Positions 3,595 through 9,575 of a stretch of DNA of 64,000 nt are shown here, in pieces. The translations under genes were made by a program, and so were the position numbers. How positions within the stretch are numbered: the stretch's first letter is position 1; each line of letters starts with the position of its first letter. The notes under the pieces were generated by a model that did no database searches, was not told the DNA's origin, and saw nothing but the letters and a program-made list of their open reading frames with translations. The DNA is from Pseudomonadota bacterium (lineage in GTDB: Bacteria; Pseudomonadota; Gammaproteobacteria; RBG-16-57-12): positions 81,960-145,959 of the forward strand of contig JBFMHP010000017.1 in the NCBI GenBank assembly GCA_040752855.1, in the 5' to 3' direction.

Positions 3595-3892
3595 AAGAAA
3601 CTCAAATTTTATCGCGCCATCCAGCAACTCTGTTGCGGATCGGGGCGGGTCTCAAGCGTCGGGGTGCCCGGCCGCTTGCTGATACCTCATAGCATTGCTT
3701 CAAGCCAGGCTGGGCCTGTTTGAAGGAGCGCAAATCATAACAAAAGGCCGCCAGCTCTGCCAAGCGCTTTTGCCGGTCGGAATGGCTCTAAAAAAACCGC
3801 CAGGGAACTGATATCGCGAGGGGCTACTTGCCGCTGGCGGGGCATAATTCGGTGCACACACCTGCCCCTGCCAACCTCCCTCTTTGAATCTT

Positions 3893-3979
3893 TCAGTACA
3901 CCATCCACATTTTGGTCACGATTAAGCTGAGCATCGCAATCAACGCCAGTATCACCATATCAATCAGGTAGTTCGTCAT
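3893..3979 (-). CDS. 28-aa hydrophobic single-TM micropeptide (MTNYLIDMVILALIAMLSLIVTKMWMVY)
   Basis: ATG preceded by AAAAGGAGTTGTAT (AAGGAG Shine-Dalgarno, 7 nt spacer). It lies downstream of a hairpin terminator at 4061-4083. It is embedded in an 87-aa ORF-track entry whose upstream part is Arg-rich junk. Confidence 0.5.
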   Translation of the reverse strand: MTNYLIDMVILALIAMLSLIVTKMWMVY

Positions 3980-4060
3980 ATACAACTCCTTTTGGTTGCT
4001 GAGACGATCGGAATTACCGATACACGCCCGTGAGCGGCTGTCAGAGCCAGCTTTTCGGAT

Positions 4061-4083
4061 ACAAAAAGGTCCATCCCTGGACC
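4061..4083 (-). terminator. Rho-independent terminator after the 443-aa gene
   Basis: Minus strand reads GGTCCAGGGATGGACC followed by TTTTTG. It is 34 nt beyond the stop at 4117. Confidence 0.55.
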
Positions 4084-4116
4084 TGTCAACATCCATGTTG
4101 CATAACCACGCCGGTC

Positions 4117-5448
4117 TTACGCCGGCTCGGGCTCCTCTTCTCCAACCGGACAACAACGGTATTCCTGGGCCTTGTCGAGCAGCTCGATTTCGCGTTTGAG
4201 TTTTTCGTTTTCCAGGCGCATGCGTTCGAGCTCCAGCTCGATGCGCTTTTCCAACGCGGGCTCACACGTGCAGCAGTTGTCGAGACATCCCTTGACCAGC
4301 ACGCCCGGCGTCGGGAGGATCTCCTCGCGCTCCCATGACAGCTCGGCGATGATCTTCTCGCTCGGCCGGCCGGTTTTCGGATCGAGCAGGCCGGCGGCAA
4401 CCAGCTCCTTGTCGAGCTGCGCCAAAGCGGCCGTGCGAACATTCGCCGGAATCGGCTGTGCGACCACGGCCGCTGCCGAAAACGATGCGCGAGCCATCAG
4501 CCCGCCCGCCACCTCGCCCTGCGCAAGATGCAGCCGTTGCAGCGCGCTGGTGCGCGCCATGTCTTCCACTTCGAGACGTTTCGCGCTGGCGGCACCAATC
4601 GCCTGCGGCATTACCATGACGCGCCCGGAGACATCCACCGGCGGCCGCTGATAGGCGCCGACCGGCGCCGCGGGGTCGTCCACGTATCGTTGAATGGCGA
4701 CCAAACGGAAACGGATTTTTTGCACCTTGTTGATCTTGTGAAACAGATAAGTCACCGCATGGCAGCGATTGGGATTGCGAAAAACGCGCGATGCCGATTC
4801 GAAATGATCCTCGGATTGACCTTCGGCATGCGTGCGGCTTTGCACCTCGCCGATGGCGGTGCTGCTCTTGGCGCGCACCCCGGAGGCCACGTACGAGGAT
4901 GAGGCCTCGGCGTGCTGCGACAGATTGCGCGCAAAACTCATGGTCGAGCTGGCGTCATAGCTGCCGCCGCCTCCGCCGCCACCGATTTGTATGATGCCGA
5001 GATTGAGACTGGCACCGCCCCCGCCTTCGGCCCAGGACTCTTCGTAGCTGCTCGACACCGCGCCGCTTTCGCTCACGGTGAGATCGCTCAACGAGCGCGA
5101 CATCGCGGCGGTATAGAACGACTCCTCCGACGTCGTTTCATGCCGGTAGGCAAGCTGCGACTCCGTGTCGTATGACCAGCGCGAGTGGCGATCGCTGGTA
5201 AACAGCCGCACTTCTTCACCCGGCAGCAAGGTGGTCGAATACACCGGATCACCCAGCACCAGCGGCCCGGAGCACCGCTCCAGCCTGTAGTGCAGCACTA
5301 CCTCCATCTTGATCGGCTCCCGCTGATTCCCCACCCGCACACGATAGGGAACGCGATAGCGAAAGTTGAGCGTGTCGCAGATTTCGGCGCGATTGAGCAC
5401 CGGGCAACACTCCAACTCTGATACCTTGCTTGCAACCATTTCCTGCAT
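4117..5448 (-). CDS. Hypothetical cytoplasmic protein, ~443 aa: Gly-rich segment, CC-pair motifs, C-terminal coiled coil. No recognisable family.
   Basis: Long minus-strand ORF with normal amino-acid composition. The preferred start is MQEMVASK at 5448, which has GAGGAGAG 6 nt upstream; the ORF-track start is 5466. Contains ECCPV...RCCPVGEEE, CLDNCCTCEP, GGGGASLNLGIIQIGGGGGGGSY, and a heptad-like ALEKRIELELERMRLENEKLKREIELLDKAQE. Confidence 0.7.
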   Translation of the reverse strand: MQEMVASKVSELECCPVLNRAEICDTLNFRYRVPYRVRVGNQREPIKMEVVLHYRLERCSGPLVLGDPVYSTTLLPGEEVRLFTSDRHSRWSYDTESQLAYRHETTSEESFYTAAMSRSLSDLTVSESGAVSSSYEESWAEGGGGASLNLGIIQIGGGGGGGSYDASSTMSFARNLSQHAEASSSYVASGVRAKSSTAIGEVQSRTHAEGQSEDHFESASRVFRNPNRCHAVTYLFHKINKVQKIRFRLVAIQRYVDDPAAPVGAYQRPPVDVSGRVMVMPQAIGAASAKRLEVEDMARTSALQRLHLAQGEVAGGLMARASFSAAAVVAQPIPANVRTAALAQLDKELVAAGLLDPKTGRPSEKIIAELSWEREEILPTPGVLVKGCLDNCCTCEPALEKRIELELERMRLENEKLKREIELLDKAQEYRCCPVGEEEPEPA

Positions 5449-5652
5449 TGTTTTCTCTCCTCTCATGGATGTTGAAGCGATGACGAGCGCGAACGCTTAC
5501 GGACTTTTGATCAGAAGCAAATGCTCATCACCTGAGTATCAGATTATTCTCTGAGCACGTTTTTTCCTGTGAAGGATGGCGATGCCAAGATGTGAAAATT
5601 GCCTTGCAACACGGCTGCTGCGAATGATGACAAACACCCGCGCGTTCTTAGG

Positions 5653-5692
5653 CAAAAAAAATCCCCGCTTCCGGCGCGTCCGGAAAGCGGGG
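5653..5692 (-). terminator. Rho-independent terminator after the 754-aa gene
   Basis: Minus strand reads CCCCGCTTTCCGG-ACGCGCC-GGAAGCGGGG followed by a T8 run. It is ~50 nt beyond the stop at 5743. Confidence 0.7.
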
Positions 5693-5742
5693 AAACAGTG
5701 CGCGCTCTTGTTTTGGTTATCGGCGCTGTGACATCAGGCGCT

Positions 5743-8007: not shown

Positions 8008-8253
8008 CTCTCTACTCCTCGATATTTTTCAGTGAATTAAATCCATGACGCGGCGCAACCGCCGTATCGCGAGCAGCGCGCCTCGATCAACAACATCGGC
8101 AGACATCATCCGAAGCGTTTTGAAGTATAGACAGCACCTGCCGATCGTCTATGTGAAAACTGCGAAAGTGCGATGTGAAAAATACCGGGAATGCCTTCGA
8201 CCGGCATCGGTCCCCTGGCGCATGCAGCAAGTGAAACAAAAACTGGGGCGGGC

Positions 8254-8299
8254 AAAAAATGAAAAGCCCTGAGCGCTTCTATTCTGAAACGCTCAGGGC
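8254..8299 (-). terminator. Rho-independent terminator after the 133-aa gene
   Basis: Minus strand reads GCCCTGAGCG-loop-CGCTCAGGGC followed by TTTTCATTTTTT. Confidence 0.65.
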
Positions 8300-8314
8300 T
8301 TGGTGTGGAGGAGC

Positions 8315-8716
8315 TTACGCAAAATGCAGATAGGCTTTCACGTCATCGTCCACATCGTCCTCGCGGCGCGAGCGCCGGGCCTCGATATTGGCGGGGAGCG
8401 TGGCCGCAATGAGCCTTTGTTGATTGATCGCCACACCACCCGTGGCCATGGCCATACAGCGCACCCGCTTGGAGATGCGCGTGCTCACACCCGGCGAATA
8501 CAATCCGGCGTAGATCCAGTCGGTGCGCAAGCTCGGCACCTCGTTCGCCGCCGGCATCTCCAAACCGGAATACTGCTCCCGATCCGCCTCCACCAAGGCG
8601 AACCAGACATGCAACGGCCTCGGATCCCAGAATGCATCGCGATCCGACACATGGAATCCAACCTCCAGGGAAACCTGGTCCGTTGACAACGGACTCAATG
8701 AATATTTATCGATGAC
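8315..8716 (-). CDS. Hypothetical protein ~133 aa; the ORF is open up to 8887
   Basis: A GTG start at 8716 lies 6 nt after AGAGGAGGG. The product is VAQVVIDKYSLSPLSTDQVSLEVGFHVSDRDAFWDPRPLHVWFALVEADREQYSG...DDVDDDVKAYLHFA. The in-frame extension up to 8887 is AT-rich, low-complexity and promoter-like. Confidence 0.45.
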   Translation of the reverse strand, partial: VIDKYSLSPLSTDQVSLEVGFHVSDRDAFWDPRPLHVWFALVEADREQYSGLEMPAANEVPSLRTDWIYAGLYSPGVSTRISKRVRCMAMATGGVAINQQRLIAATLPANIEARRSRREDDVDDDVKAYLHFA

Positions 8717-8968
8717 TACCTGCGCCACAGCAAACCCTCCTCTGACAGCGGGGTCCCTTTCGATCCGACCTTGCCCCGCATCAAGGATAAAGTTACCCTG
8801 CCGCCCCGCAGAAAACGAGGAAGTTTTTAACCTAAAAAACGGGAATATTTCACATTTTTGCGCATTGGTGAACATGAGACATCTCAAAACCGTCGTACCG
8901 AGGTTCGAACCGCCCCGCCCATCGAAATGTCCTGAGGTATATCAACAATCCCGCCCCCTGTCGCGCAA

Positions 8969-8994
8969 AGAAAAAAGGCGGCCCCACGGCCGCC
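8969..8994 (-). terminator. Rho-independent terminator after the lipoprotein gene
   Basis: AAAAAAGGCGGCC-CCAC-GGCCGCC on the plus strand, which reads as a stem followed by T6 on the minus strand. Confidence 0.6.
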
Positions 8995-9021
8995 TTCTTC
9001 CAACGCATCACACCACAGCTT

Positions 9022-9414
9022 TTATCGCATCATGGACTGAATGACCGCTAGCGGATAGGGGGGAGAGCAATAATCGGTGCGGCGTCCGCTACTAGAGATA
9101 AACGAAACGCATGTACTACTTTCGTATTTTACGACCCGAATGGTCTCGTCAGCGAGAATCTTAACGGTGTCCAGCGACTTACAGGCGTGTTGGCGCGCTG
9201 GATCATTGTCCTTAATCTCGTCACACCTTATCAGCCGGTTTCCAGTCGCAACCTCAATAATCTCGATCTCTTGACCATCCTTGAACACCAACGCCACGGG
9301 TGACCTTGTATCATGAATCGCACGCTCCAGCTTGCCTGCAGCGCAGCCTGATACAGTGACCACCAGCAAAGCGACAACAATCGACATCAAAATTTTTATT
9401 TTATTCAAAGACAT
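9022..9414 (-). CDS. Small lipoprotein, 130 aa (signal peptide plus lipobox VSGC); AT-rich gene
   Basis: MSLNKIKILMSIVVALLVVTVSGCAAGK. A GGAGGAG Shine-Dalgarno precedes the start. GC is ~48% by eye against ~65% in surrounding genes. Confidence 0.65.
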   Translation of the reverse strand: MSLNKIKILMSIVVALLVVTVSGCAAGKLERAIHDTRSPVALVFKDGQEIEIIEVATGNRLIRCDEIKDNDPARQHACKSLDTVKILADETIRVVKYESSTCVSFISSSGRRTDYCSPPYPLAVIQSMMR

Positions 9415-9575
9415 TTTATTAGCTCCTCCAGTTAAGAAAAATATATCCGCCGTTATAGCATCAGCGCGTACCCACTACTTCAGAAACAACCAAAAAAAAC
9501 ACTTCACCCACCTCTATCCATGGCAGCTGCCACAGCGCCCATCGCACCACATCACGACAAAACATGCTGGCGAAT

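Follow-up and report, generated by a model that had tools for sequence, protein, structure and literature searches.

An inherited chromosomal segment beside tRNA-Ser of a gammaproteobacterium carries two large genes of unannotated families that probably form an undescribed module

A row of genes without nameable function next to a tRNA gene raises two questions: was the row acquired horizontally, and do its genes belong together? The row considered here lies at positions 3600-9570 of a 64-kb window, i.e., the whole stretch of 64,000 nucleotides that was analysed (contig JBFMHP010000017.1 of assembly GCA_040752855.1, a gammaproteobacterium). It consists of a micropeptide gene, the large genes A and B, the small gene C and the lipoprotein gene D, and its flanking genes code for TrxC, an Aas-like protein, a FecR-family protein, a CHASE2 protein and Crp. 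A preliminary description, which was made from the sequence alone, took this segment for a tRNA-linked, horizontally acquired island and named its two large proteins as the best candidates for an undescribed system. The first proposal failed: in this lineage of gammaproteobacteria, the segment has come down vertically with the rest of the chromosome and is not a tRNA-targeted island. The second was strengthened, as both proteins belong to large unannotated families under strong constraint and the adjacency of A to the superfamily of B exceeds chance. Taken as a whole, the evidence makes it probable that an inherited segment carries, with A and B, an undescribed two-gene module of unannotated families.

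Protein A belongs to a large family. A word-indexed search (E <= 1e-3) recovered at least 2,099 clusters of homologues at 90% identity, the best 120 of which are 58-76% identical to A over 89-100% of its length, are unnamed and contain no Pfam domain. A scan of one genome per species of the GTDB yielded 408 loci with A, the best 80 of these 408 being 48-69% identical to A. The loci are found in Chloroflexota, Bacteroidota, Chlorobi, Acidobacteriota, Actinomycetota, Gemmatimonadota, Calditrichia, KSB1, Verrucomicrobiia (Verrucomicrobiota), Campylobacterales, the Alpha-, Beta-, Gamma- and Deltaproteobacteria and one archaeon of the Methanobacteriota, and the word-indexed search added metagenome-assembled genomes of Planctomycetota, Zixibacteria and Euryarchaeota. 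The family is present in more than 12 phyla including archaea, and its members are 48-76% identical. Cultured carriers are Chlorobium phaeovibrioides, Tangfeifania diversioriginum, Rhodanobacter sp. Soil772 and Dechloromonas hankyongensis. The protein was not found by tblastn in 72,556 plasmids and 50,697 phages, nor in the 2.9 million viral contigs of IMG/VR.

In an alignment of 35 members from different phyla, the mean column identity is 67%. The cysteines C24, C59, C229, C388, C392, C395, C432 and C433 are invariant, and C14 and C15 are nearly so. Two nearly invariant glycine runs lie within EESWAEGGGG...IGGGGGGGSYD, and the motifs ETTSEESFY, NPNxCHAVTY and QEYRCCP are conserved. No signal peptide and no membrane helix were detected in A. 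The AlphaFold2 (AF2) model is of moderate quality, with a predicted local distance difference test (pLDDT) score of 67 and a predicted template modelling (pTM) score of 0.57; in it, a beta region at the N-terminus is accompanied by two pairs of helices, long beta-hairpins and, at residues 397-430, a C-terminal helix predicted with confidence. The heptad core of this helix is formed by I403, L407, M410, N414, L417, I421, L424 and Q428, and an invariant asparagine occupies an 'a' position, a pattern that favours parallel dimers in GCN4. The helix resembles basic leucine zippers (bZIP) of the GCN4 type in this asparagine and in its 3-4 hydrophobic repeat, and four family members give weak Jun-like matches in Pfam (best E 0.096); indeed, weak matches of the coiled-coil type are all that Pfam returns for the 35 members at E <= 5. 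In contrast to bZIP proteins, A lacks a basic DNA-binding region, and cysteine clusters lie on either side of its zipper, which comes after a beta-rich body of about 390 residues without known fold. The spacing C388-x3-C392-x2-C395 also brought the radical S-adenosylmethionine (SAM) enzymes into consideration; this candidate was rejected, as none of the 35 members matches PF04055 and the model predicts a beta-hairpin leading into a coiled coil rather than a TIM barrel. No fold match to A was found in the PDB. Its only significant structural relative outside its own family is BFVD entry A0A5K0U6Q4, an uncharacterised protein of 642 amino acids from the giant virus Yasminevirus sp. GU-2018 (Foldseek E 6.4e-19, 25% identity over 341 columns).

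Homologues of B form at least 947 clusters at 90% identity and come from Gammaproteobacteria, Chlorobiaceae, Aquincola and others, with Aquincola tertiaricarbonis as a cultured carrier; the plasmid collection gave no match. The best 120 homologues are 44-73% identical to B, unnamed and without Pfam domain. The AF2 model of B is good (pLDDT 83.7) and consists of several beta-sandwich domains of the immunoglobulin (Ig), CnaB and transthyretin-like kinds, a disordered proline-rich linker (residues 177-240) and a short helical segment. Around 14 cysteines are conserved, including C117-x-C119, C135, H140-x-C142 and C605-C606, as is a tryptophan-rich LCLWPWWWRFRCDE motif. At the level of the fold, B matches the CarboxypepD_reg / transthyretin-like / CnaB beta-sandwich domain of about 80 residues; at the level of sequence profiles (PF13620 and relatives), no Pfam family was reached at E <= 0.1, and a profile search of the PDB came back empty. 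Domains of this type are known from pilins, adhesins and S-layer proteins (e.g., SlaB, 8qox_B; BcpA, 3kpt) and from carboxypeptidase D (5aq0). B differs from these proteins in lacking a full-length match, a Pfam match, a signal peptide, a sortase motif and an isopeptide signature, and in having the conserved cysteines and the tryptophan-rich motif. Look-ups of the exact sequences of A, B and the protein P0121 in a contig index gave no match. Sequences of solved structures gave only noise with A and B, for single sequences and profiles alike, and none of the proteins A to D has a meaningful match in Pfam, NCBIfam, PADLOC (PADLOC-DB 2.0) or PHROGs.

The link between the two families becomes visible from the side of A. 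Its neighbourhood was compared in 81 A-containing loci, 57 of which are well flanked, i.e., by at least 3 kb on both sides. An iterated hidden Markov model (HMM) search seeded with the alignment of B identified B-like neighbours of 646-901 amino acids, and further large neighbours share the C-terminal module of B, around 250-330 residues in length (hhalign probability 97%, E 4.5e-11). A gene of this B superfamily lies immediately beside A in 21 of the 81 loci and in 18 of the 57 well-flanked ones, which belong to many phyla; it is mostly on the same strand, separated by gaps of 0-100 bp and often abutting A. Apart from this gene, the immediate neighbours vary widely: 162 Pfam families were counted in 125 proteins, and none of them occurs in more than four. 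Across phyla, no large gene other than that of the B superfamily recurs beside A, and A is non-randomly adjacent to this superfamily. As A has about two places for a neighbour, genomes hold thousands of genes and the family is rare, far less than one such locus would be expected by chance.

A third protein accompanies A, or A together with a B-like protein, in about 11 loci of several phyla (L034, L046, L048, L051, L054, L062, L068, L069, L072, L076 and L006; e.g., L068 9338-9658; L numbers denote the loci compared). It is a membrane protein of around 100 amino acids with the consensus WRxTHL..EDGP..MDCFYCLSLW. The gene order is B-DUF-A in L034 and L068 and A-B-DUF in L051 and L072, where DUF stands for this protein. 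It matches DUF1360 (PF07098) weakly (E 2.6e-5 to 3.5e-7) and shares the membrane topology and the CxxC motif of this family, for which we know of no function; a literature search on DUF1360 and on terms for the cysteine and glycine motifs found nothing relevant. Separately, a gene for a BTAD/SARP-type transcriptional activator is located around 1-1.7 kb upstream of A in L020, L022, L033, L040, L058, L062 and L069 (e.g., L062 8717-9451), mainly in Actinomycetota and Gemmatimonadota.

A broader reading goes beyond the pair in the window. According to it, A, a B-superfamily protein and, optionally, the DUF1360-like CxxC membrane protein constitute an undescribed, widely distributed cellular module, which occurs in Bacteria and Archaea, has a homologue in a giant virus and is built on a new fold, a zipper-dimerised cysteine-cluster protein with a multi-beta-sandwich partner. 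We advance this reading tentatively and rate its chances as somewhat short of even. With low confidence, a mechanism can be sketched in which A and B act as a non-enzymatic assembly of two proteins. A might dimerise via its C-terminal GCN4-like zipper with the invariant asparagine, and the cysteine clusters on both sides of the zipper (C388-x3-C392-x2-C395 before and C432-C433 after it) could bind a metal or an iron-sulfur cluster or form disulfide cross-links. B would serve as a rigid multi-beta-sandwich scaffold or binding surface, whose conserved cysteines may join in metal or iron-sulfur binding or in cross-linking. The DUF1360-like protein, where present, might tether the pair to the membrane or couple it to redox reactions.

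Other roles can be considered, and the one that survives best concerns the genes on the far side of B. It was speculated that B, perhaps together with the lipoprotein and A, is an accessory of an envelope-signalling module formed by Crp, the CHASE2 adenylate cyclase and the FecR-TPR-barrel protein, e.g., a structure or ligand that is sensed or exported. Indeed, the order FecR-lipoprotein-B is found in five contigs (the window, L166, L005, L087 and L088) with a FecR identity of only 49-76%, CHASE2 is present too wherever the contig reaches (the window, L166, L087 and L088), and B shares an abundance of Ig-like domains with surface proteins. However, FecR or CHASE2 lies near B in only two of 80 metagenomic B loci, both from the lineage of the window, and B occurs in unrelated contexts in Ectothiorhodospiraceae, Chlorobiaceae and Aquincola. 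Moreover, B has its own terminator, an upstream spacer of 307 bp and no signal peptide. No recurrent partner of B was found from the side of its own loci, only small lineage-specific clusters. In this lineage, B may have a role in the adjoining CHASE2/FecR module, a role that is without support elsewhere; as a general explanation, the accessory role is unlikely. As a separate observation, a subtilase (Peptidase_S8) is the first or second neighbour of B in five B loci, including L087 (9979-11634), L088 (12639-14297), L151 and L152; none stands beside B in the window.

It is rather unlikely that A and B form a conflict system, i.e., an anti-phage defence system or a toxin, in which A would be a latent pore-former with a membrane-inserting, glycine-flanked hydrophobic hairpin (residues 121-175) and B its sensor or receptor-binding partner. 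The patchy distribution, which indicates horizontal transfer across more than 12 phyla, and the loss of the gene in close relatives would fit such a system. In the AF2 model of A, long beta-strands occur together with a disordered segment rich in Ser and Gly, the tip of which (GIIxI) is hydrophobic; the elongated beta-sheets and this flexible segment are reminiscent of beta-pore-forming toxins (Toxin_10 / aerolysin-like). In contrast to these toxins, A has neither a signal peptide nor a toxin context. PADLOC recognises neither protein, defence genes are not over-represented among the neighbours of A (single isolated matches among the 125 proteins), and the plasmids, phages and viral contigs searched do not contain A. 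Proteins of defence systems and toxins usually evolve faster; with 48-76% identity across phyla and a ratio of non-synonymous to synonymous divergence (dN/dS) of around 0.1, A is far more conserved than is typical of them.

Several findings weigh against the preferred reading of A and B as a module. A is nearby in only one of 26 well-flanked loci of close B homologues, and B stands alone in L001, L002 and L004. Close homologues of B are mostly solitary and in unrelated contexts; within the B clade found here, the window, L005 and L127 are the exceptions. Given the weak link from the side of B, the partnership is either not obligatory or one that works in trans. B and A are separated by a strong terminator in the window, and as each gene has a terminator of its own, the two are probably transcribed separately in this genome. 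A DUF1360-like gene was not found by tblastn and HMM search in the 64-kb window, which sets this locus apart from the DUF1360-bearing ones, and the micropeptide downstream of A is unrelated to it in sequence. Neither A nor B has a signal peptide, and a disulfide-linked extracellular role would need another export route. The proposed assembly with its metal sites or disulfides is deduced from sequence patterns and the moderate AF2 model of A and is held with low confidence. The separate transcription units, the solitary B homologues and the fact that A itself is solitary in about two-thirds of its loci would be expected if A and B were functionally unrelated conserved hypothetical proteins that are adjacent incidentally. 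We regard this as improbable, since the B superfamily recurs beside A in many phyla, with a chance expectation far below one locus, and no other family does so in more than four loci.

How the segment came to its place can be read from its relatives. The closest one found, L166 (NCBI assembly GCA_964557295.1, 60% GC), was located through the rare gene C; with a nucleotide identity of 78-84% to the window, it is a genus-level relative. Its genes stand in the order Bax1-I, Crp, CHASE2, FecR, lipoprotein, C, B, a remnant of A, micropeptide, tRNA-Ser, TrxC and Aas-like, which is the order of the window. Synonymous divergence (dS) between the two, estimated according to Nei-Gojobori, is 0.79-0.83 for B, 0.77 for C and 0.75 for the A remnant, and 0.75 for CHASE2, 0.91 for the N-terminal half of FecR and 0.70 for TrxC; dN/dS is 0.08-0.24 across B, C, the A remnant and the flanking genes. 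The uniform dS and the low dN/dS indicate an equal age of the segment and its housekeeping flanks, and purifying selection on the segment. More distant relatives of low GC content have Crp-CHASE2-FecR-D-B (L088), CHASE2-FecR-lipoprotein-B (L087) and FecR-lipoprotein-B-A (L005), without a tRNA in the sequenced stretch of any of the three. Gene B has been located beside the block of Crp, CHASE2 cyclase, FecR barrel and lipoprotein since before these lineages diverged, and gene A is ancestral at this spot, some relatives having since lost or truncated it. The three small genes, for the micropeptide, C and D, are lineage-restricted.

The island proposed at first, perhaps old and decayed, shares with tRNA-associated integrative islands the adjacency to a tRNA, genes of uncharacterised function and some variation of gene content among relatives: L086, L087 and L088 lack A downstream of B, L166 has only a truncated copy of it, L005 lacks C, and L166 has in addition an RTX-like gene and a partial duplicate of the tRNA 5' end. 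A patch of low GC at one edge also fits. However, no integrase-family match was found in Pfam and NCBIfam among the five genes, which fill the segment save for short spacers; the 25-nt 3' end and the 22-nt 5' end of tRNA-Ser occur once each in the 64 kb with up to three mismatches allowed; repeats flanking the segment are at chance level; and the segment is located 5' of the tRNA. No empty site was found in a close relative; L166 carries the micropeptide, the A remnant, B and C at the same place, an outcome that the preliminary description had itself named as contradicting an island. Together with the dS values of L166, the conserved order of B and lipoprotein with FecR/CHASE2 in relatives without a tRNA and the native composition of A, B and C, this makes an island very improbable. 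Turnover resembling that of accessory genes is present, through loss and cassette replacement rather than island insertion.

The composition of the segment had been part of the case for an island. The compositional mosaic is real, but it was misplaced. The window has a mean GC content of 61% and not the background of about 65% that had been assumed, and the spacers within the segment (47-57% GC), which had been regarded as anomalously AT-rich, do not differ from a spacer outside it (13002-13294, 50%), i.e., they are normal intergenic DNA here. Genes A (GC 0.62, GC at third codon positions (GC3) 0.75), B (0.64 and 0.81) and C (0.59 and 0.73) are native when compared with the flanking CHASE2 gene (0.64 and 0.78). 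Only gene D (GC 0.49, GC3 0.55) and the 3' half of the FecR-family gene (0.50 and 0.53) deviate; the 5' half of the latter is native (0.64 and 0.76). A second GC dip was observed at 38001-40000 of the window (0.54 vs. the mean of 0.61).

The deviating patch is an exchanged cassette. DNA homology to L166 ends exactly at window position 11303 and restarts at 8857. The N-terminal half of the FecR protein is 76% identical to that of L166, and the C-terminal barrel half 36% to L166 and 53% to L088; the barrel of L166 is 65-70% identical to those of L087 and L005. Gene D likewise matches only the lipoprotein of L088 (53-57% identity, same position), while the lipoproteins of L166, L005 and L087 are a second type, 64-75% identical among themselves; a word-indexed search with gene D recovered only the query itself. 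The type of lipoprotein co-varies with the type of barrel, type 1 being that of the window and L088 and type 2 that of L166, L005 and L087. These sequences show the low-GC patch to be a cassette of two allelic types, which recombination has swapped independently of the flanks. This swap reaches into the FecR gene and is not the edge of an island; it explains the AT-rich lipoprotein gene noted in the preliminary description and has nothing to do with the tRNA. It is a separate example of modular allelic exchange in an envelope protein.

The features of the segment and its edges are listed in Table 1. tRNA-Ser was borne out by ARAGORN and Rfam, and the five minus-strand genes described at the outset beside it by the reading frames; a scan of the window with Rfam gave the tRNA as the sole match. 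The four hairpin-plus-T-run terminators were recovered as well, two by the terminator scan and two by direct reading; that of gene B is conserved in L166, and both hexamers of the tRNA-Ser promoter are kept there, as read from the sequence. The genes had been called orphans, which is correct in that they belong to no named family, but A, B, C and D all have homologues.

Table 1. Coordinates of features in and around the segment (positions in the window)
Feature	Position	Strand	Evidence and remarks
tRNA-Ser (anticodon TGA)	3506..3594	-	ARAGORN; Rfam RF00005, 56.8 bits; same site in L166; segment boundary
Sigma-70-like promoter upstream of tRNA-Ser, TTGGCA-18 nt-TATGAT	3734..3763	-	Promoter scan, 10/12 matches
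Micropeptide, 28 amino acids, hydrophobic, MTNYLIDMVILALIAMLSLIVTKMWMVY	3893..3979	-	AAGGAG ribosome-binding site (sequence read)
Hairpin and T-run 3' of gene A, intrinsic-terminator-like	4067..4084	-	Terminator scan
Gene A, 443 amino acids, Cys/Gly-rich unannotated family, predicted C-terminal leucine zipper	4117..5448	-	ATG start behind GGAGAG
Strong intrinsic terminator 3' of gene B	5654..5692	-	CCCCGCTTTCCGG / CCGGAAGCGGGG then T7; 13-bp GC stem (sequence read)
Gene B, 754 amino acids, multiple beta-sandwich domains, proline-rich linker, about 14 conserved Cys	5743..8007	-	
Intrinsic terminator 3' of gene C, 16-bp stem	8264..8301	-	Terminator scan; inverted repeat I10
Gene C, 137 amino acids	8315..8728	-	GTG start at 8728, GGAGG ribosome-binding site
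Exchanged low-GC cassette: gene D and 3' (outer-membrane barrel) half of FecR-TPR gene	8858..11302	-	Overlaps edge of segment
Intrinsic terminator 3' of gene D	8971..8994	-	GGCGGCC GTGG GGCCGCC then T6; 7-bp GC stem (sequence read)
Gene D, lipoprotein, 130 amino acids	9022..9414	-	Lipobox VSG|C seen in translation
FecR-TPR-barrel gene, 1141 amino acids, next after gene D	9576..13001		

Gene A is intact in the window and in L005. In L166, it is a deletion remnant (11380-11641), from which about 1.15 kb are missing: the ribosome-binding site and the start ATG-CAG-GAA are kept, and the final 84 codons (86% identity) adjoin them immediately in another reading frame, at a junction that is not marked by a run of N. 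As the remnant still shows a dN/dS of 0.10, the deletion is probably recent. An apparent frameshift of B in L166 was rejected as a mutation, since a run of N identifies it as a scaffold gap.

Gene C is a rare, lineage-restricted small protein gene. Among the relatives compared, it is present only in the window and, at the same position, in L166 (dN/dS 0.24), and among 1.84 billion representative sequences it has two real homologues, the proteins P0242 (72% identity) and P0244 (31%). The preliminary description had recognised the gene and given it 133 amino acids; the length is 137, with the GTG start fixed by P0242, a homologue of 135 amino acids. Upstream of this start, which the homologues support, a stretch at 8690-8800 of the window (residues 29-66 of a 190-amino-acid frame) matches 19 repeated segments of P0243, a protein of 4194 amino acids (phmmer, E 2.3e-11).

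The micropeptide has a homologue in L166 with the same ribosome-binding site (15 of 24 residues identical, E 8e-10; dN/dS 0.13 over 24 codons), which supports it as a real gene at the genus level. It is not present in L005, and a search across phyla for a conserved small open reading frame downstream of A gave none. Between the micropeptide and tRNA-Ser, L166 has two sequences that are absent from the window: a gene for a 153-amino-acid protein with a signal peptide and GGxGxD (RTX-like) repeats (11871-12332), and a 25-nt duplicate of the 5' end of tRNA-Ser (12481-12505). These additions suggest that the spacer beside the tRNA is a small indel hotspot and not an integration site.

The genomic segment itself is ordinary; the novelty lies in the A family and the A/B module, which fit no known kind in the libraries, solved structures and literature searched. 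Constraint of this degree without annotation is rare, and the adjacency of A to the B superfamily offers a concrete, testable handle on two large families without a name. Should the module exist as proposed, its sporadic phyletic pattern, taken together with a constraint close to that of housekeeping genes, would suggest a function that is specialised and mechanistically rigid, e.g., a redox- or metal-dependent structure of the envelope or an inclusion.

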